Shown here piece after piece: positions 5,187-62,043 of a stretch of 64,000 nt of DNA. This stretch comes from Chloroflexota bacterium (lineage in GTDB: Bacteria > Chloroflexota > Limnocylindria > P2-11E), in assembly GCA_016194865.1 (NCBI GenBank), contig JACQAT010000020.1, positions 12,902 to 76,901 on the forward strand, written 5' to 3'. The translations under genes and the position numbers were made by a program. Each line of letters starts with the position of its first letter. Position 1 is the first letter of the stretch. The notes beneath the pieces were generated by a model, which was not told the origin of the DNA, did not search any database, and worked only from the letters and a program-made list of their open reading frames with translations.

Positions 5187-5210
5187 CCGAGGCGACCCGG
5201 CGATTCCGGA

Positions 5211-5615: not shown

Positions 5616-5621
5616 CGCAGG

Positions 5622-5627
5622 ATGCTA
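5622..5627 (-). promoter_or_regulatory. -10-like hexamer TAGCAT, 6 nt upstream of the VOC GTG (leaderless geometry)
   Basis: The minus strand reads TAGCAT-CCTGCG-GTG. Confidence 0.4.
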
Positions 5628-5697
5628 GGGAACCGCCCAGGGCATCTCGTTGTAGGGGTGGTGCAGGGCCAGAACGGCCCCTTGCGGAGGTGGCATC

Positions 5698-6276: not shown

Positions 6277-7343
6277 TGCGCGGCCTTCCGCTGGTGGGCG
6301 TGATCCTCTCGCTCGTCGCGTGCGGCAGCGGTGCCGCACGCGCCGTCCCCGCGGCCACGGCAAGCGCGACGCACGATCAGCACGCCGCGACGCCGAGCGC
6401 GACGCCGCTCATCAACGTCGACGACATGATGGGCTTCTTCGCGAACCAGCAGACCGTGTTCGTCGTGTCCGATGGCTGGGTGCGCGCCGTGACGCTGCTC
6501 AATCACGACGTGCGCTACGAGATCGCGGTGGGCGGCCCGGCGCAGGTGGCCGTCGATCAGGGCGGCACGTGGCTCTACGTGCTCGACCTGGACAAGAGCA
6601 CGGGCACCTCGCGTCTGCGCACCTTCGACGTCGCCGCCGGATCGGAGCGCGCACGCGCCACGGAGATCAGCGGCGTGGCTTCGGATCGGCGCGCGCTCGC
6701 CGCGGTCGCGAACAAGGTGTACGTGCTCAAGACGGAGGCGAGCGACAAACGCAGCTGGGTCGACTCCTTCGAGGCCCTCACGCTCAAGCCCGCCGGCACC
6801 ATCGCCGAGAAGGCTGGTTGCGCGGATCGGCTGCTCGCGACCGTCGCGCGGATCGCGCTTGTCTGCCGGACCGATGGGACGATGGCCGTGGGCTTCACGG
6901 TCGGTGGCGGCCGGCCCGTCGATCGCGCGTTCCCCGGGATCGCCGGCGCGACGATGGCCGATGACGGCACGATCTACGTCGTGACGAGCGCCGGTGCGCT
7001 CGCCGCGGTCCCGAGCGGGAGCGATCATCTCGCCGACCTGCCGTTGCCGAGCGACTGGATCGGGACCGTGCTCCCGGACACGCTCGTCGCGACGGGCGGG
7101 TACGTCGTCCTCGCGCAGCAGGCGAACGTCCCCTACGCCCGCATGTGGCTCAGCTCGAACATGGCCCAGCGGCGCAGCTGGCAGCTCTCCGGAACGCCGC
7201 AGGGCGGGATGCTCGCGCTCTGGCCGTTCGCGTACTTCACGGTCGATCGCAGCGTGCGGCACATCGATCTGGGGACGGGCGCCCTCGAGACCATGACCGA
7301 TATCGGCGCGAACGCGATGCTGGGGGCGATCGCGAGCAAATAG
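6276..7343 (+). CDS. Hypothetical lipoprotein
   Basis: ATG at 6276 overlaps the upstream TGA. MRGLPLVGVILSLVAC/GSG lipobox. The rest is repetitive and beta-rich (possibly propeller-like). I recognise no family. Confidence 0.6.
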   Translation: MRGLPLVGVILSLVACGSGAARAVPAATASATHDQHAATPSATPLINVDDMMGFFANQQTVFVVSDGWVRAVTLLNHDVRYEIAVGGPAQVAVDQGGTWLYVLDLDKSTGTSRLRTFDVAAGSERARATEISGVASDRRALAAVANKVYVLKTEASDKRSWVDSFEALTLKPAGTIAEKAGCADRLLATVARIALVCRTDGTMAVGFTVGGGRPVDRAFPGIAGATMADDGTIYVVTSAGALAAVPSGSDHLADLPLPSDWIGTVLPDTLVATGGYVVLAQQANVPYARMWLSSNMAQRRSWQLSGTPQGGMLALWPFAYFTVDRSVRHIDLGTGALETMTDIGANAMLGAIASK

Positions 7344-40853: not shown

Positions 40854-41581
40854 TCGGCCCGGATCTCCCGCGCGTCACGGTCGAGGGCTTCGAGGGCCCG
40901 CTCGATCTGCTCCTCCAGCTCATCGAGGAGCGCAAGCTCGACATCCTCACGATCCGGCTGGGGGATCTTGCCGATGAATACCTGCAACGAGTGCGCGCGC
41001 TGGACGCGCTGCCCGCGGAGGAGGTCTCGGCGTTCCTCATGCTCGCGTCACGCCTCGTGCTCCTGAAGGCGCGCAGCCTGCTGCCCTCGCTCGAGCCGAT
41101 CCCCGAGGACGAGGGCGAGAGCGAGGCCGAGCTGCGCGCGCGGCTTCTGGAGTACGCCGCGACGCGCGAGCGCGCCGCGTCGTTGGGTCAGCGGATGCGG
41201 GCCGGCGAGCGAGCGTTCCATCGAGAGGGCGGCACCGTCGTGCTCCCGCCGAAGGGCGGTTCGCCGGACGCGCTCGCGTCGGCCTGGGCGCACGTGCTGT
41301 CGCTCGTCGGTCGCCAGCGCGAGGACGAGCTCGTCGCGCCGGCCGAGCGCTACTCGGTGGAGCAGCGCACGGCGGAGATCGAGGCGCTCTTCGCATCTCC
41401 CGATGCGCGGCTCACGTTCATGGAGCTGCTCGGCACGACGCCGACCCTCGGCTTCGCTATCGTGACCTTCATCGCGCTGCTCGATCTGTACCGGCGCATC
41501 GTCATCGATATCCAGCAGGACGCGCTGTTCGGCGAGATCGTGATCACGAGGAAGACGACGGGAGAGGCGCGCGCCGAATGA
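40850..41581 (+). CDS. scpA: Segregation and condensation protein A
   Basis: GTGA overlap. FEGPLDLLLQLIEERKLDI is the family signature. Confidence 0.9.
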   Translation: MIGPDLPRVTVEGFEGPLDLLLQLIEERKLDILTIRLGDLADEYLQRVRALDALPAEEVSAFLMLASRLVLLKARSLLPSLEPIPEDEGESEAELRARLLEYAATRERAASLGQRMRAGERAFHREGGTVVLPPKGGSPDALASAWAHVLSLVGRQREDELVAPAERYSVEQRTAEIEALFASPDARLTFMELLGTTPTLGFAIVTFIALLDLYRRIVIDIQQDALFGEIVITRKTTGEARAE

Positions 41582-48099: not shown

Positions 48100-49584
48100 A
48101 TGCGCTCCCGCGTACTCCTCCTGATCCTCGCCGGCGCCCTGTCCTGCACCCCGGCGGTCCCGGTCTCGGGTCCGGACGGTCCGCCGGAACGGGAGCCCGT
48201 GGCGCGGCATCTCGACGTTCGTGCCGCCAGCGGTGGGAACGGGGTGCGGGCCGTGCGGGTGTGCGCGACGGGCACCGGTCGCGGCGACGAGCGCTGCGGG
48301 ACGACGGGTGCGGACGGCCGCGTCGCGTTCGACCTCCCCAGCGGCACGTACCTGCTGCGCGCGACGCCACCGGCGGGCGCCCGTCTCGAGGAGGCACGTC
48401 AGGGCGTGGACCTGACGACCGGCAGCGCGACGACGGTCATCGCGCTCGAAGGGCTCGCGCTCGTCGGCGGGACGGTGCGTGACGACGCGGGCGCGCTCGT
48501 GAACGGCGCCAGCGTGTGCGCGCACGCGACCGTCGACGGCGCGACGTTCTGCGTGTCGTCGCATGCGGACGGGCGCTACGCGGTGCGCGTGAAGCCCGGC
48601 GTCTACAAGGTCGAGATCCAGAGCTCGCCGGGCGCGCGGCTCGTGGCGCAGTGGGCGCGCGGGCGCGTCGATTCGTACGAGGCCGACACCATCGACGTGC
48701 GCGCGAGCGACGAGCTCGGCGTCGACGTGGCGCTCATACGCGGCTTCGTCATCGACGGCGTCGTCACCGATGGACGCGACGGCCGGCCGCTCGAGGAGGC
48801 GCAGATCTGCACGAGCACGCTCGCGGCACCGCTGCCGTGGAATTGCGACAAGACGGACAAGGTGGGGACGTACCGCGTGGTGCGCGAGCCAGGCCAGTAC
48901 TGGGTGTGGACGATCCCGTCCGACACGGACGGGGAGCAGCTGCGCTACCAGTACCACCGCTTCGCGGACACGGGCATGAACGCGGCGCCGCTCATCCTCG
49001 ACCGCGACGTGCGCTACGACGTCGCCCTCCGCACCGGCCCGCGCCTCGTCGGCCGCGTGACGCTCCCGGACGGCACGCCGCTCGTCGGGGCGCACGTCTG
49101 CGTCGACACGCCGTTCGCGACGGGACGCATCTGCCGCGAGACGAAGGGCGATGGCAGCTACGTGGTCACGACCCGCCCCGAGACCTACGTGCTCCAGATC
49201 CAGCCACCTTCCGGCAGCCGCGCGGTCGGCACCTGGTGGCGCAGCGGGCGAAGCTGGAACGACGCCGATCCGGTCGAGATCCGCTCCGCCGACACGCGCG
49301 TCGACATCGTGCTGGCGGCGGGCGTGCTCCTGCGCGGCAATGTGCTCACCGCCGACGGCGTGCCCATCGAGGAGGCGCCCGTGAACGTGAGCGACGCGCG
49401 TGGCTTCCTCGTCGGCGGCTACACCGACCCGCACGGGCACTACGAGATCGCGGTCCCGAAGGGCAGCTACACGGTCGACGTGTTCGCCCCGCGGGTGAGC
49501 CAGCTGCTGAGCGTCCCGGGCAAGGAGCTGCGGATCGACGCCGACACCACGTACGACGTGAAGCTGCCGTTTGCGTCACCATGA
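48100..49584 (+). CDS. Secreted/lipoprotein with 5-6 carboxypeptidase-regulatory-like (CarboxypepD_reg) repeats
   Basis: MRSRVLLLILAGALSC signal/lipobox. The repeats follow the pattern V.G.V.D..G.P...A.VC....(9-12)..C..T..DG.Y.V.V.PG.Y. Four of them carry a conserved Cys pair. Confidence 0.7.
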   Translation: MRSRVLLLILAGALSCTPAVPVSGPDGPPEREPVARHLDVRAASGGNGVRAVRVCATGTGRGDERCGTTGADGRVAFDLPSGTYLLRATPPAGARLEEARQGVDLTTGSATTVIALEGLALVGGTVRDDAGALVNGASVCAHATVDGATFCVSSHADGRYAVRVKPGVYKVEIQSSPGARLVAQWARGRVDSYEADTIDVRASDELGVDVALIRGFVIDGVVTDGRDGRPLEEAQICTSTLAAPLPWNCDKTDKVGTYRVVREPGQYWVWTIPSDTDGEQLRYQYHRFADTGMNAAPLILDRDVRYDVALRTGPRLVGRVTLPDGTPLVGAHVCVDTPFATGRICRETKGDGSYVVTTRPETYVLQIQPPSGSRAVGTWWRSGRSWNDADPVEIRSADTRVDIVLAAGVLLRGNVLTADGVPIEEAPVNVSDARGFLVGGYTDPHGHYEIAVPKGSYTVDVFAPRVSQLLSVPGKELRIDADTTYDVKLPFASP

Positions 49585-49615
49585 CCCCCTGACGAAGATC
49601 CATGGGAGGACAACG

Positions 49616-50029
49616 ATGCTGGCACTGACTCGGCTGCTGGCCCCGCGCCTGACCGCCCACGCGCACTGCGACGTCCCCTGCGGCATCTACGACCCGAGCA
49701 CCGCGAAGATCGCGGCCGACACGGTCGCGAAGATGGTCGAGAAGATCACGGCCATCGACCCGAAGAACAACGCAGACCGGAATACGTTGGTCCGTTGCAT
49801 CCAGGTCAAGGAGGAGCACGCGCAGATCTGCAAGAAGGAGCTGCTCATCCTCTGGAGCGACTACTTCAAGCCCGAGCACCTCGAGAAGTACCCGAAGCTG
49901 CACGACACGTTCTGGAAGGCGGCCAAGCTCTGCTCGAAGAACAAGCAGAACGTGGACGCGCAGGCCGCCGCGGACCTCCAGGCCGCCGTGAAGGAGATCA
50001 GCGACATCTTCTGGGCGACCAAGAAATAG
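49616..50029 (+). CDS. sodN: Nickel superoxide dismutase precursor
   Basis: GGGAGGA SD. The 14-aa leader MLALTRLLAPRLTA-HA is followed by the Ni-hook HCDVPCGIYDP. LWSDYFKPEHLEKYP and IFWATKK match Streptomyces SodN as I recall it. Confidence 0.95.
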   Translation: MLALTRLLAPRLTAHAHCDVPCGIYDPSTAKIAADTVAKMVEKITAIDPKNNADRNTLVRCIQVKEEHAQICKKELLILWSDYFKPEHLEKYPKLHDTFWKAAKLCSKNKQNVDAQAAADLQAAVKEISDIFWATKK

Positions 50030-50346
50030 CCTTCGGGCTGCGACGCGTCGCGGTCTCCGGCGGAAGCATGGAGCCCGTCCTGCGGGACGGTGACTGGCTG
50101 GTGGTCGCCGCGCTGCGGCGGCCGCCACGCGCCGGGGAGCTCGTGGTGCTGGACGACCCGCTCGCGCCAGGACGCCTCCTGGTGAAGCGCGTGCGGGACG
50201 TCACGACCTCGGGGGTGCGCGTCGGCAGCGATGCGAGCGAGCACGCCGGCCATCTGGCCGAGCGTGGCGTCATTCCGCTGAGCCTGGTCCACGGACGGCC
50301 CGTGCTGCGCTACGCGCCGCTCGCCCGCGTCGGCATTCCCCGTTGA
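50011..50346 (+). CDS. sodX: NiSOD maturation protease SodX (S26/S24 signal-peptidase-like); start non-canonical or unresolved
   Basis: FGLRRVAVSGGSMEPVLRDGDWLVV...LLVKRV corresponds to SodX FGLAEVTGPSMVPTL. The only ATG/GTG/TTG upstream of the catalytic Ser is ATG 49795, which would overlap about half of sodN out of frame. CTG 50011 or ATA 50026 fit better. Confidence 0.8.
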   Translation: MGDQEIAFGLRRVAVSGGSMEPVLRDGDWLVVAALRRPPRAGELVVLDDPLAPGRLLVKRVRDVTTSGVRVGSDASEHAGHLAERGVIPLSLVHGRPVLRYAPLARVGIPR

Positions 50347-50364: not shown

Positions 50365-50598
50365 ATGGGGATCGTGACCTGCGTCCGCTGCTCGCAGACG
50401 CGCGAGGGAGCGGGCAAGGTGGGGCTTCCTGGCACGCTGGGTGCAGAGGTCGAAGAGCGCGTCTGCTCCGTCTGCTGGGCCGAGTGGGTGCAAACGCAGA
50501 TCAAGGTCATCAACCACTACGGGCTCAAACCGGTTCTCAGGGAGGACCGCGAGAAGCTGTACGGCTTCACGCGGGAGTTCCTGAACCTGGCGTCATAG
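50365..50598 (+). CDS. yggX: YggX-family Fe(2+)-trafficking / oxidative-damage protection protein
   Basis: 77 aa. The pattern C..C...(E/R)G...PG.LG..V...V....W.EW...Q...IN...L......R..L......FL matches E. coli YggX. Confidence 0.8.
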   Translation: MGIVTCVRCSQTREGAGKVGLPGTLGAEVEERVCSVCWAEWVQTQIKVINHYGLKPVLREDREKLYGFTREFLNLAS

Positions 50599-50623
50599 CA
50601 TCCGCCGGCGAGGAGGAAGTCGA

Positions 50624-51442
50624 GTGGACGAGCGGACGGGTCTCGCGGTCGCGGCAGACGCCACCGGCGCCACGGACGATGGCGTCTACGTCTACTGCAT
50701 CATCGAATCGACCGAGCCACGCAGCTTCGGCAACATCGGCATCGGCGGCCGATCGGATTCCGTCTACACCGTCCACGACCGCGACCTCGCCGCGGTCGTG
50801 AGCCGCGCCCCGCTCCAGGTCTACGACCCGACCCGCGAGAACGCGCTCACCCATGAGCACGTCAACGAGGTCGTCATGATCGACAACGGCTTCACGCCGG
50901 TCCCGATGAGCTTCGGCACGCTGTTCAAGACCGAGTCGGACACCATCGAGTTCCTCAAGGACACGTACGACGCGCTGCGCGACGTGCTCCAGAAGATGAA
51001 GGACAAGCTCGAGTTCGGGCTCAAGGTGAACTGGGATCGCGAGGAGGTCCTCGCGGAGATCGAGCGGGAGAACGAGGAGATCCGGCGGCTCAAGGACGAG
51101 ATCGTCAACAACCAGCACGCGTCCACCTACTTCGCGCGGATGCAGCTCGGCCGGCTCGTCGAGCAGGCGCTCGCGAACAAGTCCGACGCCTACGTGCGCG
51201 ACATCTACGACCATCTCGCCGACGCGGCCATCGCGTCGCGCTCGAACAAGGTCATCGGCGACAAGATGATCATGAACGCCGCGTTCCTCGTCGCCCGCGA
51301 GAGCGCGGACGCGTTCGACGGCAAGGTCCACGAGATCGGCAAGAAGTACGAGGGCAAGCTCGCGTTCCGTTACACGGGCCCCTGGCCTCCGTACAACTTC
51401 GTGACCATCCGCCTCCAGCTCGAGCGCTCCGCGGGGGTCTGA
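50624..51442 (+). CDS. gvpF: Gas vesicle protein GvpF/GvpL family (copy 1)
   Basis: GAGGAGGAAG SD with a GTG start. 272 aa. YVYCII, DLAAVVS, PMSFGTLF and C-terminal YTGPWPPYNF motifs. Confidence 0.9.
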   Translation: MDERTGLAVAADATGATDDGVYVYCIIESTEPRSFGNIGIGGRSDSVYTVHDRDLAAVVSRAPLQVYDPTRENALTHEHVNEVVMIDNGFTPVPMSFGTLFKTESDTIEFLKDTYDALRDVLQKMKDKLEFGLKVNWDREEVLAEIERENEEIRRLKDEIVNNQHASTYFARMQLGRLVEQALANKSDAYVRDIYDHLADAAIASRSNKVIGDKMIMNAAFLVARESADAFDGKVHEIGKKYEGKLAFRYTGPWPPYNFVTIRLQLERSAGV

Positions 51443-51446
51443 CCCC

Positions 51447-51776
51447 GTGTTCGGGCTGGGGAAGCTCCTGATGCTGCCGTACTCGTTGCCCGCCGCGGGC
51501 ATCAAGTACTGCTTCGAAAAGGTGCTCGAGGTGGCCGAGGCCGAATATATGAACGAGGACGCCGTCAAAGAGCGGCTGCTGCTCCTACAGCTCCAGCTCG
51601 AGGAGGGCCAGATCGACGAGATGGAGTACCGCGCCCAGGAGGCGCCGATCCTCGTGCAGATGCGTGAGATCCGCGAGTACCGCAAGCGTCAGATCGAGGC
51701 CGAGATGGCCGAGCGGCTGGCGGCGAATACCGAGGGCAAGAGGGTCGTGATCGAGACGCCGGACGAGCTTTCGTGA
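51447..51776 (+). CDS. gvpG: Gas vesicle protein GvpG
   Basis: 109 aa. An N-terminal amphipathic LPAAGIKYCFEKVLEVAEAE is followed by LLLLQLQLEEGQIDEMEYRAQEAPIL, a typical GvpG coiled coil. Confidence 0.8.
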   Translation: MFGLGKLLMLPYSLPAAGIKYCFEKVLEVAEAEYMNEDAVKERLLLLQLQLEEGQIDEMEYRAQEAPILVQMREIREYRKRQIEAEMAERLAANTEGKRVVIETPDELS

Positions 51777-52561
51777 GCGGCCTGCTGTACGTGTACGCGG
51801 TCGCGGGTCCAGGCGCCGTGCAGTGGCTCGAGCGGCATCAGCTCGAGGGCATCGGTGGGGCGCGCGTTCGCGGCGTCACTGCCGACGCGGTCATCGGCGC
51901 GGTGAGCGAGGTCCCCGCAGCGGAGTTCGATCAGGAGCCGCTCGATCGCAACGTGGCGGACGCGACCTGGCTCGGCCCGCGCGCCGCGTCGCATCAGGAG
52001 GTCAACGCGCGACTGCTGGATGGGCTCGGTGCGGTCCTGCCGCTCGCGTTCGGCACGATCTTCCGCAGCGAGGACCGCGTGCGTTCTGCCTTGCGCGAGC
52101 GCGGCCCCGAGCTCGCGACGGCACTGGCCGCCGTGGCGGGACGCGCCGAGTGGGTCATCACGCTCGATCGCGACGACCGGGTGGCGGGGGAGTCGCTCGA
52201 CGCCGAGCCCGAGCTGCGGGAGCTGCGGGGGGCCGCGGGGGCGAGCGCGCCGGGCCGCGCGTATCTGCTGCGGACGAAGCTGGACAACGCGCGCCGCGAC
52301 GCCAGGCGGCGCGTCGAGGATGACGCGCGCGCGGCGCTTCGCGCGGCGACCGAGACCGTGGCGGAGGAGCTCACCGACGAGCCGCTCGTGGAAGGCGGCC
52401 CGGTCGCGCGCGCCACCGCGCTCGTCCCGCGGGACCACGAGGGGGCGCTGCGCCGGGCGACCGAGGGCTTCAACAAAGTGTGGTCGCCTCGTGGCTACGC
52501 GGCACGCGTAGCGGGTCCCTGGCCCGCCTACCGCTACGGCGCGAAGGTCGGGTCGTTGTGA
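51773..52561 (+). CDS. gvpL: Gas vesicle protein GvpF/GvpL family (copy 2)
   Basis: GTGA overlap. 262 aa. LLYVYAV, LPLAFGTIF and C-terminal VAGPWPAYRY motifs. Confidence 0.85.
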   Translation: MSGLLYVYAVAGPGAVQWLERHQLEGIGGARVRGVTADAVIGAVSEVPAAEFDQEPLDRNVADATWLGPRAASHQEVNARLLDGLGAVLPLAFGTIFRSEDRVRSALRERGPELATALAAVAGRAEWVITLDRDDRVAGESLDAEPELRELRGAAGASAPGRAYLLRTKLDNARRDARRRVEDDARAALRAATETVAEELTDEPLVEGGPVARATALVPRDHEGALRRATEGFNKVWSPRGYAARVAGPWPAYRYGAKVGSL

Positions 52562-52737
52562 TCGATCGCTCCGCAGGCATGAGCCTTCTCGAGCTGACGG
52601 ATCGGCTGCTGAACCGCGGCGTGGTGCTCACGGGCGAGGCCACGATCTCCGTTGCCGGCGTCGACCTGATCTACCTCGGGCTCAACCTCGTCCTCACCGC
52701 GGTCGAGACGATGTCCGAGAAGCAGAAGACCGCGTGA
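52558..52737 (+). CDS. gvpS: Small GvpA-family gas vesicle protein (GvpS/GvpM-like)
   Basis: GTGA overlap. 59 aa. LLELTDRLLNRGVVLTGEATISVAGVDLIYLGLNLVLTAVETM is the GvpA/J/M core. Confidence 0.8.
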   Translation: MIDRSAGMSLLELTDRLLNRGVVLTGEATISVAGVDLIYLGLNLVLTAVETMSEKQKTA

Positions 52738-53411
52738 GCCTCCTCATCCACGCCATCAGCGCGTCGCCTTGCGACGAGCCGCCGCGCGGCCTTGCTGGCG
52801 TGCCGCTCGTCTGGGTCCCCGCGGGCGAGCTCGGGCTCTGGGCATCGCCCAGCGAAGGTCCGCTCGACCGGGAGCTGGTGTTCGACCACCACCGGATCGT
52901 CGAGCAGCTCTGCGCGCGGACGGCGTGTCTCCCGGTGCGCTTCGGTCAGCGCGTCGAGGACGAAGACGTCGCGCGAGAGCGGCTCGCCGCCCGCGCCGGC
53001 GAGCTGGGCGCGACGCTGCGCCGCATCGGTGGCCGGCAGGAGATCGCGATCACGCTGCTCTGGCAGTGCTCGCCGGTGATCGAGGGACGCGGTCATCGCG
53101 TGCAGGCGAGCACCCCGGGCCGGCGATTCCTCGAGACGCGCGGGCAGGCCTTTGCCGACGAGGACGGGCGGCGCGCGGCGGCCGAGGCGCTCGCGGAACG
53201 GCTTGTCAGGGAGCTGGCGGTCGACCAAGCGGACGTTCGGCACGCAATTTGCCCTGCACCCGACCTTGCGCTTTCGTCATCGCTGCTGGCCGTGCCGGGT
53301 GCGGCCGAGCAAGCCAAGGAGGACGCGGTGCGTGTGACGGCGACGCTCGAAGGTGTCCGTGCGGTCGTGAGCGGCCCCTGGCCGCCATACACGTTCGCGG
53401 AGACGGCATGA
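52734..53411 (+). CDS. Gas vesicle protein GvpF/GvpL family (copy 3, short)
   Basis: GTGA overlap. 225 aa. LIHAIS, LPVRFGQRV and C-terminal VSGPWPPYTF motifs. Confidence 0.8.
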   Translation: MSLLIHAISASPCDEPPRGLAGVPLVWVPAGELGLWASPSEGPLDRELVFDHHRIVEQLCARTACLPVRFGQRVEDEDVARERLAARAGELGATLRRIGGRQEIAITLLWQCSPVIEGRGHRVQASTPGRRFLETRGQAFADEDGRRAAAEALAERLVRELAVDQADVRHAICPAPDLALSSSLLAVPGAAEQAKEDAVRVTATLEGVRAVVSGPWPPYTFAETA

Positions 53412-53707
53412 GCGCTTCGCGCGCGGATCTGGCCGATCTCCTGCCGGAGAAGATCGACATCGACCCCGAGCGCGTCGAGCAGGGCCTCGCCCAGCTCGTC
53501 CTGACGCTCGTCGAGTTCCTGCGGCAGCTGCTCGAGCGTCAGGCGGTCCGGCGCATGGAGGGAGGGAGCTTGAGCGAGGACGAGGTCGAGCGAATGGGCA
53601 TCGCGCTCATGCGACTGGAGGAAAAAGTGGAGGAGCTCGCGAAACAGTTCGGGCTCACCAAGGAGGATCTGAATCTGGATCTGAAGCCATTGGGGAAGCT
53701 GCTGTGA
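53408..53707 (+). CDS. gvpK: Gas vesicle protein GvpK
   Basis: ATGA overlap. 99 aa. IDIDPERVEQGLAQLVLTLVEFLRQLLERQAVRRME is the GvpK signature. Confidence 0.85.
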   Translation: MSASRADLADLLPEKIDIDPERVEQGLAQLVLTLVEFLRQLLERQAVRRMEGGSLSEDEVERMGIALMRLEEKVEELAKQFGLTKEDLNLDLKPLGKLL

Positions 53708-54033
53708 TGGATCGCCGACCCGGGATGCAGCACGAGAGCACGAGCATCATCGACATCCTCGATCGCGTCCTCGATAAGGGCCTGGTCGTGGCGGGCGACA
53801 TCAGCATCTCGCTCGCGAACGTCGAGCTGCTGACGATCCGCATCCGACTGCTGGTCTGCTCCATCGACAAGGCGGAGCAGATCGGGCTCAACTGGTGGCG
53901 TTACGACCGCAATCTCGTACGGCCAACGCATGGCGGGGGACAGCTCGATACGGGTGAGGTGCAGCGGCTCGAGAGCCGCATCGCCGAGCTCGAGCGCGAG
54001 CTCGCGCGCACCAAAACGGCGAAAAAGGGGTAG
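53704..54033 (+). CDS. gvpJ: Gas vesicle protein GvpJ
   Basis: 109 aa. IIDILDRVLDKGLVVAGDISISLANVELLTIRIRLLVCSIDKAEQIGL followed by a C-terminal coiled coil. Confidence 0.9.
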   Translation: MMDRRPGMQHESTSIIDILDRVLDKGLVVAGDISISLANVELLTIRIRLLVCSIDKAEQIGLNWWRYDRNLVRPTHGGGQLDTGEVQRLESRIAELERELARTKTAKKG

Positions 54034-54039
54034 AGCGGC

Positions 54040-54333
54040 ATGCCAGTAGAACGCGCAGCAGGTGGCACCAGTCTCATCGATGTCCTGGATCGGATTCTCG
54101 ACAAAGGCATCGTCATCGATGCCTGGGTCCGCATCTCCCTCGTCGGGATCGACCTGATCACCGTCGAGGCCCGCGTCGTCGTCGCCTCCATCGACACGTA
54201 CCTGCGCTACGCGGAAGCCCTCGGCATCACCTCCACGGTCGCGCGTCCCGCCTCGGGCGCGGCCCGCGAGCTCGGTGGTGGCGAGTCGGGTGCTCCCTTG
54301 AGCGAGAGCAGGGCTCGGACACGAGCCGAGTAG
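54040..54333 (+). CDS. gvpA: Major gas vesicle structural protein GvpA (with a ~30-aa C-terminal extension)
   Basis: 97 aa. [52 protein letters not shown] is the canonical GvpA core. Confidence 0.95.
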
Positions 54334-54403
54334 GTGGTCGTGCCTCGCTTCGCTCAGCTCGACCGTCCTGCTCCGCCGGGCTTCGCCCGGACGTGGTAGC
54401 CGC

Positions 54404-56467
54404 TTGAGCGACCTTCTCGAGCTTCTCGAGCAGCGGACATCCGCGCGCGAGTCGGGTGAGATCCCGGCCGCGCTCGGGCCGATGCTCGAGGAGCTCAGCC
54501 GCGCGTTCGCGTGCGACCGCGCGCTGATCGCGCTGTACCACCCGGACCGGCAGCTTCTCTCGGGCAGCCTCGGACGCAATATCCCGCGCGACTACGCGGA
54601 AGCGCTCGAGATCCCCCTCAGCGACGCGACCGACCCCAGCGTCACGGCCTTCCGGAGCGGCGTCCCGCAGCGCGTCGAGGACGCCGCGACCGACCCACGG
54701 ATCCGCCAGCACATCCGGGAGGTGCTCGTCGAGCTTGCGCTCGAGCGATTCCTGGTCGCGCCGCTCCTCGGCGCGTCCGAGGCCGTCGGCGTCGTGCTGC
54801 TCTCGCGAGCAGCTCCGTTCAGCGAGAGTGACGTCGACGCGCTCATGCCGCTCACCAATCGCGCCGGCGCCGAGCTCGCCCGCGCGCGCGACGTCGAGCG
54901 GCTCCGCGACACGAGCGAATCCACAGCGATCCAGCAGGGCTGGCTCTGGCTCATGATCAACTCCGTCGCCGACCCGGTGCTCGTGTCGGACGAGCAGAAC
55001 GAGATCATCCTGCAGAACAGGCGCGCCGAGCTGCTCTTCCGCGTCAACCCGGAGGACAGCCCCGGCCGCAAGCACGCGGTCACGATGAACAACTTCCTGT
55101 TCACGGCGGCGCTGTCCACGTGGAATCTGCAGCGCGGCGAACGATCGCCAACGCGCGAGCTGACGCTCGTCGATCCGACCGAGGGCTCGGAGCTCAGCTT
55201 CGAGGTCATCGCGCAGCCGGCGACGAACTACCGGCTCGGCGCGGGCGGCCGCGGCATGGTCGCGGTGCTGAAGAACGTCACCGACCTTCGCAACGTGACC
55301 GAGGAGCTCAGCCGCAACGTCCTCCGTCTCCAGTCCGCGGACCAGGAGATCCGGACCGAGCGCGACCGCCTCGATCTCATCCTGCGGAGCGTGCCGAACC
55401 CGATCATCGTCATCGACAACGACAACCAGATCATCACGACCAACGAGGCGGCGCAGCGCGTCTTCGGCGGTGAGAAGCGGCCGCTGGCCGAAGGCCGCGC
55501 CGCGGAGACCGCGCTGCGCAACAACGCGAAGTTCACGTCGTTCCTCGCGCAGCTTCGCCTCGATCCGGCGACGCGGAAGGCCGGCGAGCTCGCGCTCATC
55601 GATCCGACCACTTCGGAGGCCCTCGAGATGGTCGTGACGGCGACGGAGATCCAGGATCAGCTGGGAGCCGTCGTCGCCGTGGTCGCGGTGCTCCAGGATG
55701 TCGGCCGGCTCCGCGAGCTCGAGCGCCGCCGCCTCGAGCAGGCGCTCTTCGAATCCGAGAAGCTCGCGGCGACCGGCCGTCTCGCCGCGTCGATCGCGCA
55801 CGAGATCAACAACCCGCTCGAGGCGATCCAGAACTCGCTGTATCTGCTGGTGAACAAGGTCCCGAACGACGACCCGAACTACAAGTTCCTCGAGATCGCG
55901 ATGAAAGAGACCCAGCGGATGTCGCGGATCCTGCGACAGATGCTCGGGTTCTACCGGCCGGCCGCGTCGATGGGGCCCACGGATGTCAACGCGCTCATCG
56001 ATGAGGCGGAGGCGCTCGTCGTGAAGCGCCTGCGGGATCGCAAGATCGGACTCCGCAAGTCGCTGGACGGCGCGCTGCCGCCGATCCAGGCTTCGGCCGA
56101 TCAGCTCAAGCAGGTGATCCTCAACCTGCTCCTCAACGCCGCCGAGGCGATGGGGGAGGGCGGCACGATCGACCTCGAGACACGCGTCTACCGCGACGCG
56201 AGGGCTCCGTTCCTTCGCGCCGAAGCCGTGCAGATCCTGATCAGGGACACGGGCGCGGGCATCGACGAGGAGCACATGCCGCACATCTTCGAGCCCTTCT
56301 TCTCCACGAAGGGCGAGCGCGGCACCGGCCTCGGGCTCTGGGTGTCGTCCGGCATCGTGCAGGCGCATGGCGGCACGCTCCAGGTGCGCAGCAGGCCCGG
56401 CATCGGGACCACGTTCAGCATCACCCTGCCGATCGCGGGGCCGCCGAGCGATGCCGATGGCCGGTGA
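54404..56467 (+). CDS. Cytoplasmic sensor histidine kinase (GAF-PAS-PAS-HisKA-HATPase)
   Basis: 687 aa with a TTG start and no TM segment. H-box SIAHEINNPL, N-box LLLNAAEAM, and G-boxes DTGAGI and GTGLGL. Confidence 0.85.
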   Translation: MSDLLELLEQRTSARESGEIPAALGPMLEELSRAFACDRALIALYHPDRQLLSGSLGRNIPRDYAEALEIPLSDATDPSVTAFRSGVPQRVEDAATDPRIRQHIREVLVELALERFLVAPLLGASEAVGVVLLSRAAPFSESDVDALMPLTNRAGAELARARDVERLRDTSESTAIQQGWLWLMINSVADPVLVSDEQNEIILQNRRAELLFRVNPEDSPGRKHAVTMNNFLFTAALSTWNLQRGERSPTRELTLVDPTEGSELSFEVIAQPATNYRLGAGGRGMVAVLKNVTDLRNVTEELSRNVLRLQSADQEIRTERDRLDLILRSVPNPIIVIDNDNQIITTNEAAQRVFGGEKRPLAEGRAAETALRNNAKFTSFLAQLRLDPATRKAGELALIDPTTSEALEMVVTATEIQDQLGAVVAVVAVLQDVGRLRELERRRLEQALFESEKLAATGRLAASIAHEINNPLEAIQNSLYLLVNKVPNDDPNYKFLEIAMKETQRMSRILRQMLGFYRPAASMGPTDVNALIDEAEALVVKRLRDRKIGLRKSLDGALPPIQASADQLKQVILNLLLNAAEAMGEGGTIDLETRVYRDARAPFLRAEAVQILIRDTGAGIDEEHMPHIFEPFFSTKGERGTGLGLWVSSGIVQAHGGTLQVRSRPGIGTTFSITLPIAGPPSDADGR

Positions 56468-57740
56468 CCGGATCCTCGTCGTCGACGACGAGGAGAGCGT
56501 CGCGGTGACCATGCAGGCCATCCTCGAAATGGACGGTTACGACGTCATGACCGCGCTCAGCGGGTCCGAGGCGGGGGAGCTCATCCGCGGCGGCGGCGAG
56601 TTCGACCTTGTGCTCACGGACCTTCGCCTCGAGGATGCCGACGGGCTGCAGATCATCCAGGAGGTGCGCAAACGCAGCCCCGACACGATCTCGATCATCC
56701 TGACGGGCTACGCCTCGCTCGACTCGGCGGTGAACGCGCTGCGCGAGGGCGCGTACGACTATCTCGTCAAGCCCTGCGATGTCGAGGAGCTGCGCGCCAC
56801 GGTCTCGCGCGCGCTGGAGCGGCGGCGGTTGGGACAGCAGCTTCGCCAGCGTCTCGGCGAGCTCGAGCAAGCGAACGAGACGATCAGCGCGCTCAACGCG
56901 GACCTCCAGCGGCGCGTCGACGCGGCCACCGCCGAGCTGCGCGGGAACCTCGAGCGTCTCACGGAGCTCGACCGATTGAAGTCACAGTTCATGTCGATCG
57001 CGTCGCACGAGCTCAAGACGCCTGTCACCGCGATGTCCGGCTTCCTGCAGATCGCGCTCCGCCGGATGCGCAAGCGCCTCGACGCCGGCGGCCGCCCCGG
57101 CGACGACTGGCAGGGGGAGCAGAAGGCCATCGCCGGGCAGCTCGAGGTCGTGCACCGCCAGACCGAGAAGCTCGCGCGCCTGATCGACGAGCTCCTCGAC
57201 GTCTCCCGCATCCAGAGCGGGCGCGTCGAGTTCCATCTCCAGGAGATGGACGTCACCGCGCTCGTCGCCGAGGTCGTGGAGCGCATGCAGACGGCCAATC
57301 CAGCCCGCGAGATCCGCCTCGCCAAGAGCACCGCGCTGCCGATCACCGCCGATCGCGACCACCTCGAGCAGGTGCTCAACAACCTCATCGCCAACGCGAT
57401 CAAGTACTCGCCCGACGGCGGGCCGGTCGAGGTCGCGGTGCGCAAGGCCGACGGCGGCGCCGCGGTGTCGGTCACGGATCACGGCATCGGCATCCCCGCG
57501 GAGGAGCTCGAGAAGATCTTCGGCGTGTTCTATCGCTCGCCCGACCGCCGTGCGCGCGACGTCGGTGGGATGGGGTTGGGCCTCTACATCAGCAAAGAGA
57601 TCGTCGATCGCCATGGTGGCGACCTGATCGTCGAGAGCACGCCCGGCAAAGGTTCGACGTTCACGATGAAGCTGCCGCGCAGGGCGATCACCGATCACGC
57701 GCAGCTCACGTCACCGGAGCCCGCCGCCGCCGCGCGATAG
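56451..57740 (+). CDS. Hybrid response-regulator receiver / histidine kinase (REC-HisKA-HATPase)
   Basis: Overlaps the upstream kinase by 17 nt. REC domain (ILVVDDEE..DLVLTDLRL..KP) followed by H-box SIASHELKTP, N-box NAIKYSP and DHGIGIP..GMGLGL. Confidence 0.85.
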   Translation: MPMAGDRILVVDDEESVAVTMQAILEMDGYDVMTALSGSEAGELIRGGGEFDLVLTDLRLEDADGLQIIQEVRKRSPDTISIILTGYASLDSAVNALREGAYDYLVKPCDVEELRATVSRALERRRLGQQLRQRLGELEQANETISALNADLQRRVDAATAELRGNLERLTELDRLKSQFMSIASHELKTPVTAMSGFLQIALRRMRKRLDAGGRPGDDWQGEQKAIAGQLEVVHRQTEKLARLIDELLDVSRIQSGRVEFHLQEMDVTALVAEVVERMQTANPAREIRLAKSTALPITADRDHLEQVLNNLIANAIKYSPDGGPVEVAVRKADGGAAVSVTDHGIGIPAEELEKIFGVFYRSPDRRARDVGGMGLGLYISKEIVDRHGGDLIVESTPGKGSTFTMKLPRRAITDHAQLTSPEPAAAAR

Positions 57741-57803
57741 CCGATGCCCCGGGCCCCTCGACGCGCTTGGCAACGGAGCTGTAGTTTCCTAGGTTACTAG
57801 CTG

Positions 57804-57877
57804 TCGGGGTGGAGGGATTTGAACCCTCAACCTCCTGAACCCCATTCAGGCACGCTGCCAGGTTGCGCCACACCCCG
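57804..57877 (-). tRNA. tRNA-Pro (anticodon GGG)
   Basis: The reverse complement folds as a cloverleaf. Acceptor CGGGGTG/CACCCCG; D arm GCGC..GCGT; anticodon stem CCTGA/TCAGG with loop AT-GGG-GT; T arm GAGGG-TTCAAAT-CCCTC. Discriminator is A and CCA is not encoded. Confidence 0.9.
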
Positions 57878-60041: not shown

Positions 60042-61313
60042 ATGACCAAGTCAGCTCACCTCCTGGCGCTCGCGTGCCTGACGCTCGCGCTCCTCGCTTG
60101 GCCGCTTCGCGCATCGAGCGACGCCGCGAGCAACATCGCGATCGATCTCCTCGCCCAGCAGAACGGTCTGCGCTACGCGATCGGCGCGCCGACGATCACC
60201 TCGGACCCACGCCTCATCGTCGCGGCACAGAATCACGCCGACTACTCGGCGCTCAATCACACCGGCGGTCACTACGAGACCGCGGGTCAGCCCGGGTACA
60301 CCGGCTATGCCCCGCGCGATCGCGTCGCCGCGGCGGGCTGGTCGCCGTCGTTCGTCAGCGAGGTCGCAGCCGGCTACAGCGGCGCGTCGAACGCGCTCAA
60401 CGAGCTGTGGCACGCGCCGTATCACCGGCTCGGCATGATGCATCCGAACAACGTCTCGTCCGGCTGGGGCAACTCGACGGCCGGCGGCGGATCCGCCACG
60501 GTGGGCGACTTCGTCTACGACTTCTCGGTCCGCCCGGTCGACTTCGTCCGCTCGCCGGCCGCGAGCCAGACCGGCATCCCGGCCTCATGGAGCGGCAACG
60601 AGTCGCCGAGCCCGCTGCCCTCGGGGATCCGCGGCCCGGTCGGCTATCCGATCATGGTCGTCTACTCGGCGGGTCAGAACGTCACGATGCGAGCGGCCGA
60701 GATCGTCGCGCCGAACGGCTCGCGCGTCCCGATCTACTACGCGCCGCAGCAGTTCGAGTACGACTACCAGGTCATCATTCCGCAGCAGCCGCTGGCCGCG
60801 GGCACCACGTACCACGTGCGCTTCGACATCAACGTCAACAGCCGCATGGTCACGAACGAGTGGGACTTCACGACGGCGGGCGCGGGCGGCAGCTCGTCGA
60901 CACCGCCGGCGTACAAGCCCCCTGTGCCGGCCGACGCGGGCTACCACAGCCGCTGGCTCTCCGAGTCACCCTTCCCGACGCTGAAGGCCGGCGAGGTCAG
61001 CGCGCCGCTGACGATCTCGTTCACGAACACCGGCAGCAAGTCATGGGTCCGTGGCGTCGAGGGCCAGCAGGCGAACCTCGGCGTCAACGGTGACAACCGG
61101 CAGTGGGCGCCGCTCGGCATCGGCTGGCCGACCCCCGATCGTGTCGCCATCCAGAAGGAAGCGATCGTCGCACCGGGTCAGGTCGGGTCGTTCACCTTCC
61201 AGGTGCGCGCCCCCTCCGCTCCGGGGACGTACGCGATCGATCTGCGCGGGGTCATCGACGGCACCGTGTGGCTCGAGGACGAAGGCGTCTTCCTCTACAT
61301 CACCGTCCGCTAA
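60042..61313 (+). CDS. Secreted CAP/SCP domain protein with two C-terminal Ig-like (NBR1-type) modules
   Basis: 423 aa with a signal peptide (MTKSAHLLALACLTLALLAWPLRASS). CAP core: LLAQQNGLRYAIG...ELWHAPYHRLGMM. The C-terminus APGQVGSFTFQVRAPSAPGTYAIDLRGVIDGTVWLEDEG is paralogous to 34095..34979. Confidence 0.75.
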   Translation: MTKSAHLLALACLTLALLAWPLRASSDAASNIAIDLLAQQNGLRYAIGAPTITSDPRLIVAAQNHADYSALNHTGGHYETAGQPGYTGYAPRDRVAAAGWSPSFVSEVAAGYSGASNALNELWHAPYHRLGMMHPNNVSSGWGNSTAGGGSATVGDFVYDFSVRPVDFVRSPAASQTGIPASWSGNESPSPLPSGIRGPVGYPIMVVYSAGQNVTMRAAEIVAPNGSRVPIYYAPQQFEYDYQVIIPQQPLAAGTTYHVRFDINVNSRMVTNEWDFTTAGAGGSSSTPPAYKPPVPADAGYHSRWLSESPFPTLKAGEVSAPLTISFTNTGSKSWVRGVEGQQANLGVNGDNRQWAPLGIGWPTPDRVAIQKEAIVAPGQVGSFTFQVRAPSAPGTYAIDLRGVIDGTVWLEDEGVFLYITVR

Positions 61314-61526: not shown

Positions 61527-61533
61527 GGCAGCC

Positions 61534-62043
61534 ATGGACGAGCCGCGTCCGAAGACGCGCAACAAGATCGCGACCGAGAGCAAGACGCTGAAGGTCGGTG
61601 ACCAGGCACCCACCTTCGAGCTGCGCGCGCACGATGGCCGACAGGTCTCGCTCGCGGCGCTCCGCGGCCAGCGGGTCGTGCTCGCGTTCATGGCCTTCGC
61701 CTTCAGCGGCACCTGAAACCAAGAGGTCCCCGCGCTGAACCTCCTGCAGGAGCGTTCCAGCGCGGGCAAGGCCCAGGTCGTGGGCATCACCTGTGACTCG
61801 GTGTACGCGCTGAAAGCATGGGCCGACGACCTCGGCGGCGTGAGCTTTCCGCTCTGCGCGGACTTCTGGCCGCACGGCGCCGTCTCGAGCGCGTACGGCG
61901 TGTTGAACACGGAGATCGGACGGCCCGATCGCTCGATCTTCGTCATCGATCGGGAGGGCGTCATCCGCTACATCGACCTGCACCAGCTTCGTGAGGTCCC
62001 GGATGAGGCCGAGATCGCCGAGGAGCTCGAGAAGCTCGCTTAG
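61534..62043 (+). CDS. ahpE: AhpE-type 1-Cys peroxiredoxin with an in-frame TGA at the peroxidatic position (candidate selenoprotein, or a pseudogene)
   Basis: Track ORFs 61534..61716 and 61780..62043 share one frame. The joined product VGDQAPTFELR..VVLAFMAFAFSGT-[TGA]-NQEVPAL..FPLCADFWPHGAVSSAYGV..RSIFVIDREGVIRY aligns along its length with M. tuberculosis AhpE as I recall it (FFPLAFTGICQGEL; FPLLSDFWPHGAVSQAYGV). TGA 61714-61716 falls exactly on the Cp codon. Confidence 0.7.
61729..61766 (+). promoter_or_regulatory. SECIS-like stem-loop downstream of the in-frame TGA
   Basis: CCCGCGCTG-AAC-CTCC-[TGCA]-GGAG-c-GTT-c-CAGCGCGGG gives 9+3+4 bp with two single-C bulges. The apical loop starts 28 nt after the TGA and has G at loop position 2. 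Confidence 0.5.

Follow-up and report, generated by a model that had tools for sequence, protein, structure and literature searches.

A compact cluster of gas-vesicle genes lies within the 64-kb stretch of DNA analysed here (the window). Gas vesicles are gas-filled flotation organelles, and we consider it reasonably probable that the locus is a functional, vertically inherited and streamlined gas-vesicle operon of Limnocylindria-type Chloroflexota. The gene set encodes the shell protein GvpA, two small GvpA-like proteins (GvpJ and GvpS), GvpG, GvpK and three proteins of the GvpF fold (F, L and F3).

Eight consecutive plus-strand ORFs, spanning 50624-54333, are arranged in the order gvpF-G-L-S-F3-K-J-A (Table 1). 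All eight clear their Pfam cut-offs, in agreement with the gas-vesicle signatures that the first-pass annotation had assigned to them. The tight packing that it described was also borne out: start and stop codons overlap by 4 nt at exactly the five positions claimed (GTGA at 51773, 52558, 52734 and 53704; ATGA at 53408), and gaps of 4 and 6 nt separate gvpF from gvpG and gvpJ from gvpA, respectively. The Shine-Dalgarno-like motif reported ahead of gvpF is present, although at 50610-50619 rather than at 50607-50616. GC3 ranges from 0.79 to 0.95 across the eight frames. Neither a promoter nor a terminator was detectable at the locus. The eight-gene operon is real and intact.

Table 1. Features of the gas-vesicle locus and its immediate flanks in the window.
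Feature	Coordinates	Strand	Length (aa)	Basis and remarks
yggX-like (Iron_traffic)	50365..50598	+	77	Pfam Iron_traffic 2e-11; four Cys
Shine-Dalgarno-like GAGGAGGAAG	50610..50619	+		Read from sequence; 4 bases 5' of gvpF GTG (50624), inside 25-nt gap after yggX-like gene
gvpF (F1)	50624..51442	+	272	Pfam GvpL_GvpF 2e-72
gvpG	51447..51776	+	109	Pfam GvpG 5e-13, 49.4 bits vs cut-off 30.6
gvpL	51773..52561	+	262	Pfam GvpL_GvpF 2e-46; GTGA overlap with gvpG
gvpS-type small GvpA-family protein	52558..52737	+	59	Pfam Gas_vesicle 2e-14
gvpF3	52734..53411	+	225	Pfam GvpL_GvpF 2e-29; between gvpS and gvpK
gvpK	53408..53707	+	99	Pfam GvpK 2e-35; ATGA overlap with gvpF3
gvpJ	53704..54033	+	109	Pfam Gas_vesicle 1e-16
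gvpA	54040..54333	+	97	Pfam Gas_vesicle 4e-17; own ATG, AAGGGG upstream
GAF-PAS-HisKA-HATPase sensor histidine kinase	54404..56467	+		Pfam domains; TTG start uncertain
REC-HisKA-HATPase hybrid (receiver + kinase)	56457..57740	+		Pfam domains; 11-nt overlap with kinase stop
tRNA-Pro(GGG)	57803..57877	-		ARAGORN, Rfam; convergent with end of co-directional gene array (boundary)

The last gene contains the GvpA core quoted in the first-pass annotation and clears the NCBIfam GvpA subfamily cut-off (113.5 bits versus 100). Residues 1-71 of its product can be aligned along the whole of Anabaena GvpA (8GBS; 8e-26), and residues 1-65 align with B. megaterium 7R1C. Past the end of Anabaena GvpA there follows a low-complexity, disordered tail of about 26 aa (residues 72-97), kept in all 21 compared loci, among which the core is nearly invariant. 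This extra tail had been called unusual; it is real, but an extension as such is not unusual, since Streptomyces GvpA has 154 aa and B. megaterium GvpB 88 aa. Of the other small proteins, the gvpS-type product is 40% identical to Streptomyces GvpS, and a gene caller returned the identical 59 aa on a Logan contig. GvpJ combines a GvpA-like N-terminal domain with a charged helical C-terminus and is 47% identical to the Streptomyces 'gas vesicle protein' occupying the gvpJ slot of gvpOAFG-JLSK. An alternative gvpJ start, the ATG at 53707, gives 108 aa, as gene-called on L001. gvpG was present in 23 of 23 related loci.

The three GvpF/L proteins end, as had been noted, in GPWPPYNF, GPWPAYRY and GPWPPYTF. 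The gvpF product has cyanobacterial GvpF as its best NCBIfam match (2.5e-31, under the equivalog cut-off), scores about 100 bits against both Halobacterium and Streptomyces GvpF, and shows a median identity of 80% over the 23 related loci; it is the conserved GvpF orthologue and, by homology, would act as chaperone-like partner of GvpA. GvpL (NCBIfam GvpL 4e-22, under the cut-off) is a fast-evolving paralogue with a median identity of 41% over the same loci, and homology suggests a role as scaffold for GvpS, GvpK and GvpJ. The gvpF3 product scored only 25-53 bits against any other F/L protein compared. Its AlphaFold2 model (mean pLDDT 89.6) nevertheless had as top Foldseek matches Anabaena GvpF 6L5D (TM 0.75, E 1e-11) and Microcystis 4QSG, at 15-18% identity, and on its predicted structure it is a third, highly diverged GvpF-fold protein. 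An F3-type gene also lies between gvpS and gvpK in an Oscillochloris cluster, there together with gvpN and gvpO. The view that two F/L paralogues are the norm did not hold, as Serratia and Oscillochloris have three F genes and Bacteroidetes/Chlorobi reportedly have four or five copies of L/F (PMC2963123).

The cluster and its flanks recur in about 20 species-level MAGs of uncultured Chloroflexota and in further metagenome contigs. Gene order is identical in 23 of 23 related loci, and the claimed novelty of the order was therefore not upheld; these relatives are uncultured MAGs. The likeness to actinomycete-type clusters proved misleading as well, since both the named relatives and the flanking synteny are those of Limnocylindria (Chloroflexota). 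Every locus that was long enough carried der-plsY-gpsA-CarboxypepD_reg-sodN-sodX-yggX upstream and the kinase, the REC-kinase, UDG, CAP, AhpC and PCMT downstream; this recurrence argues for vertical inheritance. In all 23 divergent loci, the eight genes are free of stop codons and frameshifts and the overlapping start/stop junctions are preserved. GvpA shows a median identity of 92%, where the adjoining CarboxypepD_reg and kinase genes reach 45-64%, and together with the intactness of the genes this points to selection on the gvp set. The locus could alternatively be what is left of a larger Oscillochloris-like cluster in decay, heading for loss after gvpN and gvpO went, given that these and several unnamed genes are missing relative to Oscillochloris. 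The intact frames, the preserved junctions and the nearly invariant GvpA core make this highly improbable, and the conservation data bring it close to refuted. Our literature search found no paper linking these uncultured Limnocylindria relatives to gas vesicles.

The limits of 50600-54340 first set for the operon were probably too narrow: the yggX-like gene ends 25 nt upstream, and directly downstream lie the kinase and the REC-kinase, which accompany gvp genes in other lineages. The yggX-like gene was upstream of gvpF wherever this flank was captured, adjoining it also in L011, where sodN is inverted, and in L019, where sodN lies 4 kb off, and was not found at L029; it is possibly co-transcribed with the operon. 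The sensor kinase directly follows gvpA in 23 of 23 related loci, an adjacency that, taken alone within Limnocylindria, could reflect conserved synteny and nothing else. However, two unrelated contexts with other flanks also have a kinase homologue within or next to a gvp cluster, full-length in both L029 (35% identity over 682 aa, 5e-125) and L033 (30% identity, 5e-76). The kinase is probably a regulator of the operon. The REC-kinase has no DNA-binding output domain in Pfam, and its REC domain shares 40% identity with a REC-only regulator encoded within the gvp cluster of L029; an overlap of 11-14 nt between the two kinase genes is kept in L002 and L004. The gvp unit thus probably extends through both (54404-57740). 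An analogy is offered by gvrA, gvrB and gvrC within the Serratia gvp cluster, each of which is required for full gvpA1 expression (PMC4982088).

GvpN, GvpO, GvpC and an ArsA-type ATPase were absent from the window and from the 23 related loci (353 kb). The window was searched by tblastn with probes for GvpN (Methylocella, Halobacterium), GvpO (Halobacterium, Streptomyces) and GvpC/H/I/D/E. Neither the four GvpN/GvpO probes nor GvpC gave a window match below E = 0.3, in line with the first-pass annotation, whereas at the Oscillochloris locus the same GvpN and GvpO probes reached 3e-95 and 1e-20, respectively, indicating that the probes work. The other Halobacterium probes gave a single match below E = 0.3, a 74-aa GvpD fragment at 41222-41443 (E = 0.008, 30.8 bits), which was treated as chance.

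GvpN has been required for vesicle elongation in every system tested (PMC11445434, PMC11223475); gvpN mutants do not elongate, and in one B. megaterium study no vesicles at all were seen by EM (PMC11223475). In the literature consulted, no natural gvpN-less cluster was shown to form vesicles. The cluster may therefore be functional without being self-sufficient, with a gvpN (perhaps with gvpO/R-type or ArsA-type helpers) elsewhere in the genome supplying elongation. gvpN occurs in Chloroflexales, which belong to the same phylum (PMC7332563; Oscillochloris locus), and the ATPase search covered the window and, for related loci, about ±10 kb. Still, we judge this unlikely: in characterised clusters gvpN, where present, lies inside the gvp gene string, although some haloarchaeal gvp genes fall in two groups (PMC9501494 Table 1), and the 353 kb from 23 loci held no gvpN. 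None of the 120 best relatives of Oscillochloris GvpN was named Limnocylindria, a weak point as all were at least 67% identical and most had no name.

The order F-G-L-S-[F3]-K-J, described earlier as permuted, is that of B. megaterium gvpFGLSKJ with one GvpF-fold gene inserted; the whole B. megaterium cluster reads gvpAPQ-B-R-N-F-G-L-S-K-J-T-U (PMC9501494 Table 1). Besides this sub-order, the two share three GvpA-family proteins (shell protein, S and J), G, K, a shell protein with a C-terminal extension (88 aa in 7R1C) and the lack of GvpC. The window differs in placing gvpA last rather than first, in the attached two-component genes and, judging by the lack of a spare ORF in the cluster, in having no gvpR/T/U. 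Mature vesicles of B. megaterium need B, N, F, G, L, S, K and J, GvpN for elongation only (PMC11223475); the window set equals these eight minus the AAA+ ATPase GvpN, plus the third GvpF-fold protein. Within the phylum, Chloroflexales members form cylindrical gas vesicles (PMC7332563). In the cluster of an Oscillochloris sp. MAG (L034), one paralogue is of the F3 type (110 bits against the F3 profile versus 23-63 for ordinary F/L) and a PAS-domain gene is internal. Unlike the compact 3.7-kb Limnocylindria form, without N or O, this cluster extends over >10 kb and includes gvpO, a gvpN whose product shares 55% identity with Methylocella GvpN, and several more genes; gvpA was not identified in the examined stretch. 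Serratia sp. ATCC 39006 resembles the window by paralogue count (three GvpF paralogues, three GvpA-family proteins) and in encoding regulatory genes (gvrA, gvrB, gvrC) with gvp (PMC4982088), but has gvpN, gvpC, gvpV, W, X, Y, Z and gvrA in two operons.

Streptomyces gvpO-A-F-G-J-L-S-K likewise lacks gvpN and gvpC, measures about 3.8 kb, has a long GvpA C-terminal extension and belongs to soil bacteria, but it includes gvpO, only two F/L genes and gvpA near the front, in another order. There, as for the window cluster, vesicle formation is putative. No conditions giving gas vesicles have been identified for the gvpN-less S. coelicolor cluster, for which 'another, unidentified, function' was suggested (PMC4982088), and it is outside the five clusters with detectable vesicles in E. 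coli (PMC10344784). Considering that soil-type metagenomes (SMAG, forest-soil names) are the source of most related contigs, and that flotation has no obvious use there, the genes might be kept for a non-buoyancy role, cryptic or as a stress-related Gvp assembly in soil, as discussed for Streptomyces. We assign this a low probability, because the GvpA core is almost identical to the shell proteins of solved vesicle structures (8GBS, 7R1C) and keeps its median identity of 92%, as would be predicted for selection acting on the shell lattice itself, and because none of the nucleation genes F, G, L, S, K, J has been lost.

For a functional operon, a working model can be drawn from what F, G, L, S, K, J and N do in B. 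megaterium and Halobacterium (PMC11445434, PMC11223475). GvpF would bind nascent GvpA and pass it to GvpG; GvpL, alongside GvpS, GvpK and GvpJ, would seed the bicone; and GvpA would polymerise into the ribbed shell. F3 may be an additional chaperone or scaffold, and possibly each of the three GvpA-fold proteins has one dedicated GvpF-fold partner. The genes are probably translated as a coupled unit; the mostly GTG starts and overlapping stops of the accessory genes should keep their output low, while the own ATG and Shine-Dalgarno of gvpA should allow a higher one. The adjacent GAF-PAS kinase and REC-kinase may control expression upon some signal. Without GvpC, the vesicle exterior is probably decorated by the disordered tail of GvpA. 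Since neither the cluster nor its surroundings encode an ATPase, the prediction is that vesicles either remain small and spindle-shaped, like those of gvpN mutants, or lengthen independently of GvpN. The cluster data leave three outcomes, namely full vesicles, bicones only, or help from a gvpN elsewhere in the genome, and the operon is a natural test of building vesicles without GvpN.

Eight consecutive open reading frames on the plus strand make up the gas-vesicle operon, and each of them (8/8) scored above the gathering threshold of a gas-vesicle Pfam family. The eight-gene gvp cluster claimed in the first-pass annotation is thereby confirmed, and its junctions are as first described: neighbouring genes overlap by GTGA at four junctions and by ATGA at one, and the other two have gaps of 4 and 6 nt. 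By Pfam gathering scores, the general gvp accessory set (GvpF/L, GvpG, GvpK and GvpJ plus GvpS/M) is complete. GTG is the start codon of six of the eight genes and ATG that of gvpK and gvpA; gvpA has its own AAGGGG upstream of its start. Long minus-strand ORFs lie over the cluster (e.g. 50567-51685 and 54227-56521), and these were rejected as the usual high-GC artefacts, since GC3 (0.79-0.95 across all eight frames) and homology favour the plus-strand genes. Given the tight packing of the cluster, no unassigned ORF is left inside it. Scanning 46.5-59.5 kb for promoters and terminators returned nothing usable, as expected for such G+C content and phylum. A hairpin in the 70-nt spacer between gvpA and the kinase gene was dropped as a terminator, because it was no better than shuffles (z = -1.8) and the spacer is merely 18 nt in the related locus L004.

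Table. Features of the gas-vesicle locus in the window, with the median identity of related proteins to those of the window
Feature	Coordinates	Strand	Length	Domain or family match	Median identity
CarboxypepD_reg protein			498 aa	CarboxypepD_reg, repeated	45%
Ni superoxide dismutase and maturation peptidase	49571-50346	+		Sod_Ni 1e-48	
yggX-like gene	50365-50598	+		Iron_traffic	
gvpF	50624-51442	+	272 aa	Pfam GvpL_GvpF 2e-72	80%
gvpG	51447-51776	+	109 aa	Pfam GvpG	56%
gvpL	51773-52561	+	262 aa	Pfam GvpL_GvpF 2e-46	41%
gvpS type	52558-52737	+	59 aa	Pfam Gas_vesicle	76%
gvpF3	52734-53411	+	225 aa	Pfam GvpL_GvpF 2e-29	48%
gvpK	53408-53707	+	99 aa	Pfam GvpK	71%
gvpJ	53704-54033	+	109 aa	Pfam Gas_vesicle	72%
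gvpA	54040-54333	+	97 aa	Pfam Gas_vesicle	92%
Kinase	54404-56467			GAF-PAS-HisKA-HATPase	64%
REC-kinase	56457-57740			REC-HisKA-HATPase	
tRNA-Pro(GGG)	57803-57877	-			
Peroxiredoxin, split by TGA	61530-62043	+		AhpC/TSA	

The product of gvpF3 (F3), the diverged third GvpF-fold gene, has at least 186 relatives, and every named one comes from a 'Candidatus Limnocylindria' or Chloroflexota MAG. An actinomycete origin of the window was rejected on the same ground. A scan of GTDB with one genome per species gave 21 loci, including one titled 'Clostridia bacterium' (L029); the Limnocylindria-type loci were 19 full copies and one fragment, and 18 of these 20 are titled Limnocylindria or Chloroflexota. 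The closest F3 is 59% identical to that of the window, indicating that the window's own species is absent from the GTDB representatives. Looked up as exact sequences, GvpA and GvpK of the window occur only on a 1.9-kb Logan contig, and GvpF1 matched no record. With four further metagenome contigs added, the compared set consisted of 23 loci (353 kb), and the order F-G-L-S-F3-K-J-A with all genes intact was found in 23/23. Where the loci are long enough, they share der, plsY, gpsA, the CarboxypepD_reg protein, Ni-superoxide dismutase with its peptidase and the yggX-like gene upstream, and the GAF-PAS kinase, REC-kinase, UDG, CAP, peroxiredoxin and PCMT genes downstream. Collectively, the same order, the intact genes, the shared flanks and the median identities across loci argue, at the level of sequence comparison, that the gvp cluster is an ancient trait of the class, inherited vertically and kept under selection, and not one genome's oddity.

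According to one survey, which treated gvpA and gvpN as the crucial genes and used GvpN for its gene tree, the only Chloroflexota with gas-vesicle genes are those of the Viridilinea/Oscillochloris group (PMC7332563). No paper in the literature searched links 'gas vesicle' with Limnocylindria or 'gvp' with Ellin6529. Public MAG annotations already name Limnocylindria Gvp proteins automatically. In one record, an annotation-based survey would miss the shell gene, because an intact gvpA was left uncalled (L002/L010 11331-11537; GCA_036276035.1, DASUCM010000108.1), leaving a 340-nt 'gap' after gvpJ. Among the 21 loci of the GTDB scan, one complete Limnocylindria-type locus with its flanks lies on an 84.6-kb contig titled Candidatus Saccharimonadales (L017, DATJHW010000085.1), which is probably mis-binned.

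GvpN is not universal, although the archaeal, cyanobacterial, Bacillus and Serratia clusters that have been studied contain it. Annotated records of Halobacterium, Methylocella and Streptomyces supplied the tblastn probes for GvpN, GvpO, GvpC, GvpH, GvpI, GvpD and GvpE. Against the 64-kb window, the GvpN probes gave no match below E = 0.39, and the GvpO (Streptomyces, Halobacterium) and GvpC probes nothing below E = 0.3. As a control, the probes found GvpN at 3e-95 and GvpO at 1e-20 in the Oscillochloris locus L034. With this positive control working, the tblastn search of the window supports the earlier description of a compact cluster lacking GvpN, GvpO and GvpC. Of the GvpH, GvpI, GvpD and GvpE probes, only GvpD went below E = 0.3, with a match at 41222-41443 (E = 0.008, 30.8 bits, 74 aa) that was treated as chance. 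A weak GvpS-like match at 60471-60635 (E = 0.06) falls in a CAP-domain protein and is chance. None of GvpN, GvpO, GvpC and ArsA was found in the 23 compared loci. None of the best 120 relatives listed for the Oscillochloris GvpN was named as Limnocylindria; this is a weak screen, because every one of them has 67% identity or more and most are nameless.

Several phyla have an ArsA-type ATPase linked to their gvp genes (PMC2963123). As an alternative motor it was rejected, because neither the window nor the Limnocylindria loci compared contain one, although L029 does. In that soil MAG locus (DASPLH010000085.1), a 634-aa two-domain ArsA-type ATPase is encoded directly upstream of gvpL (5093-6997), the order is ArsA-L-S-F-K-J-A-kinase-REC-F-G, and GvpN was not seen in the stretch. 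L029 is possibly another case in which a different ATPase stands in place of GvpN.

GvpA scored 113.5 bits against the NCBIfam GvpA subfamily (cut-off, 100); its residues 1-71 align gap-free to the whole of Anabaena GvpA (8GBS, 8e-26) and residues 1-65 to B. megaterium GvpB (7R1C), so that it has the conserved core of about 70 aa expected of a shell protein. Beyond this core, GvpA continues for 25-45 residues in the window and in all 20 relatives compared (21/21 loci). This tail, rich in Gly, Ser, Thr, Pro and Ala, varies in sequence and usually has basic residues at the end. The conservation of its presence and composition, but not of its sequence, is suggestive of a disordered extension at the surface. 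A C-terminal extension is in itself nothing unusual, as Streptomyces GvpA has 154 aa and B. megaterium GvpB 88 aa.

F3 aligns with F and L at 25-53 bits and is equally far from archaeal and actinomycete F/L proteins. Its AlphaFold2 model, which is confident (mean pLDDT, 89.6), matched solely the two solved GvpF structures over the full length, with TM scores of 0.75 (6L5D) and 0.73 (4QSG) at 15-18% identity. The two-domain GvpF fold of the model and the C-terminal GPWPxY motif place F3 in the GvpF/GvpL family, and VVSGPWPPY is invariant across 71 F3 orthologues. Searched against 1.84 billion representatives, a profile made from these orthologues recovered 8084 family members, of which 85 lie below 1e-30. 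With this profile, ordinary paralogues reach 23-63 bits, and all 150 matches listed score at least 110 bits. Three contigs were reached via distant matches to this profile. L033 has the order L-S-F3-K-J-A-kinase with unrelated flanks. L035, a 2.3-kb contig too short for context, has an F/L gene, a gvpS-type gene and an F3-type gene in that order. L034 (Oscillochloris sp.) reads gvpN ... F-G-O-J ... L-S-(PAS/STAS gene)-F3-type-K. Judged by gene order, these contexts indicate that an F3-type gene between gvpS and gvpK characterises a wider type of cluster, at least part of which is from Chloroflexota, and that in L034 this gene coexists with GvpN. The idea that F3 replaces GvpN in a simple swap was therefore rejected: the Oscillochloris F3-type gene, in the same position, occurs together with gvpN and gvpO. 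An F3 orthologue in L029 was rejected as well: at 48 bits, the gene at that position matches the F3 profile no more closely than ordinary paralogues do and corresponds to F3 in position alone. The operon of Limnocylindria is most readily understood as a reduced version. The PAS/STAS gene of L034 (8731-9975, JAAUQO010000034.1), inside the gvp cluster, encodes a 414-aa protein, and stretches of 2.2 kb and 0.9 kb in this locus are without called genes.

Two kinase genes directly follow gvpA. Within Limnocylindria alone, this adjacency could be plain synteny. L029, however, encodes two proteins of this kind inside the cluster between gvpA and gvpF: a kinase homologous over the full length (35% identity over 682 aa including the sensor part, 5e-125) and a REC-only regulator that shares 40% identity with the window REC domain. 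In L033, gvpA is followed by a kinase with 30% identity along the full length, and everything beyond it differs. Linkage of kinase and gvp genes is thus seen in three independent gene contexts (Limnocylindria, L029 and L033), and those of L029 and L033 argue for a real link. In a Methylocella plasmid cluster, genes for a kinase and a regulator immediately precede gvpA, the kinase being 30% identical over the PAS-kinase part. In Serratia, the cluster-encoded gvrA, gvrB and gvrC are each needed for full gvpA1 expression (PMC4982088), an analogy for the linked kinases of the window. Given the link in other contexts, the operon unit likely runs to 57740 and includes both kinases; a convergent tRNA-Pro(GGG), the sole RNA gene detected in the window, marks the end of the unit after the REC-kinase.

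At the other end, the yggX-like gene stops 25 nt before gvpF. It was found upstream of gvpF in all 18 loci with captured upstream flank, and in the loci inspected it is directly upstream with a gap of 25-46 nt (247 nt in the relative L019). It keeps this place even where sodN is inverted or displaced, and its retention suggests that the transcript may start further upstream than gvpF. The gene is absent beside the L029 cluster. Its product has four Cys as two CxxC pairs. Ni superoxide dismutase and its maturation peptidase are encoded just upstream, preceded by the CarboxypepD_reg protein, which has a lipoprotein-like N-terminus.

Further downstream, the AhpC/TSA peroxiredoxin gene is split by an in-frame TGA at 61714-61716, which falls at the expected peroxidatic Cys (...AFMAFAFSGT[TGA]NQEVPAL...). 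The TGA is in the same place in three relatives, L004 (~18345, read directly), L031 (~17654) and L032 (~16524), the latter two positions being the first codon of folded stretches; in L030, the gene is likewise split by gene callers. A stable hairpin begins 11 nt past the TGA in the window (z = -4.7) and is weaker or non-significant in relatives. The split protein is probably a selenocysteine peroxiredoxin.

The cluster had been framed as actinomycete-type with a permuted order, and neither description survived comparison. The actinomycete order is A-F-G-J-L-S-K, and gvpO heads the gvpOAFG-JLSK cluster, whereas the Chloroflexota window has F-G-L-S-F3-K-J-A without a GvpO match, and its relatives are Limnocylindria/Chloroflexota. 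The window has gvpF-G-L-S-K-J in the B. megaterium order, but not as a contiguous run, since gvpF3 interrupts it between S and K. In B. megaterium, gvpN is immediately upstream of gvpF, preceded by gvpR (a GvpO homologue), whereas the window has the yggX-like gene there. The supposition that only two F/L paralogues are the norm elsewhere was likewise not sustained. The individual parts are ordinary; it is their combination that is undescribed in the searched literature, namely the lack of an ATPase, an additional GvpF-fold gene, a GvpA that has a tail and is encoded last, an attached phosphorelay and, from the loci compared, class-wide conservation in a mostly soil lineage.

In B. megaterium, GvpB together with GvpF, G, L, S, K and J is essential, GvpR, GvpT and GvpU are dispensable, and GvpN is required for elongation and not for initiation (PMC11223475); the window set equals these required proteins minus N and plus F3. 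Interaction mapping suggests that GvpF is the first to bind GvpA and is then displaced by GvpG, that GvpL contacts GvpA via GvpS, GvpK and GvpJ, a trio that may form the seed of the bicone tips, and that elongation is driven by GvpN; gvpN mutants form bicones without elongation (PMC11445434). By homology, the window gene set would nucleate vesicles, after which assembly would either halt at small spindles or proceed to elongation by a GvpN-independent route. No natural gvpN-less cluster has been shown to form vesicles in the literature covered. Vesicle-like structures have reportedly been seen in one Streptomyces strain. For S. coelicolor, no vesicle-giving conditions are known (PMC4982088), and its cluster is outside the five with detectable vesicles in E. 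coli (PMC10344784). It seems rather unlikely that 50624-54333 is a complete ATPase-independent kit giving full-size vesicles without GvpN or another NTPase, in which F3 and/or the tail would spare the energy step and the tail would replace GvpC. If it were, the 3.7-kb operon would be the smallest natural self-sufficient gvp system, and GvpN would not be mechanistically required for shell growth.

Gas vesicles serve as acoustic reporter genes, a use limited by cluster size and gene number, and a translationally coupled operon of eight genes and 3.7 kb would be an attractive engineering candidate, if functional. A lineage with a strongly selected gvp operon and no linked ATPase offers a natural experiment on GvpA insertion and on the contribution of GvpN, and the conserved sensor kinase provides an entry point for finding what signal turns the organelle on. 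The gvp genes are a core, syntenic trait of a second, non-phototrophic Chloroflexota class with mostly soil-derived genomes, and their presence in soil Limnocylindria reopens the question raised for actinomycetes, that of the purpose of gas vesicles in soil.
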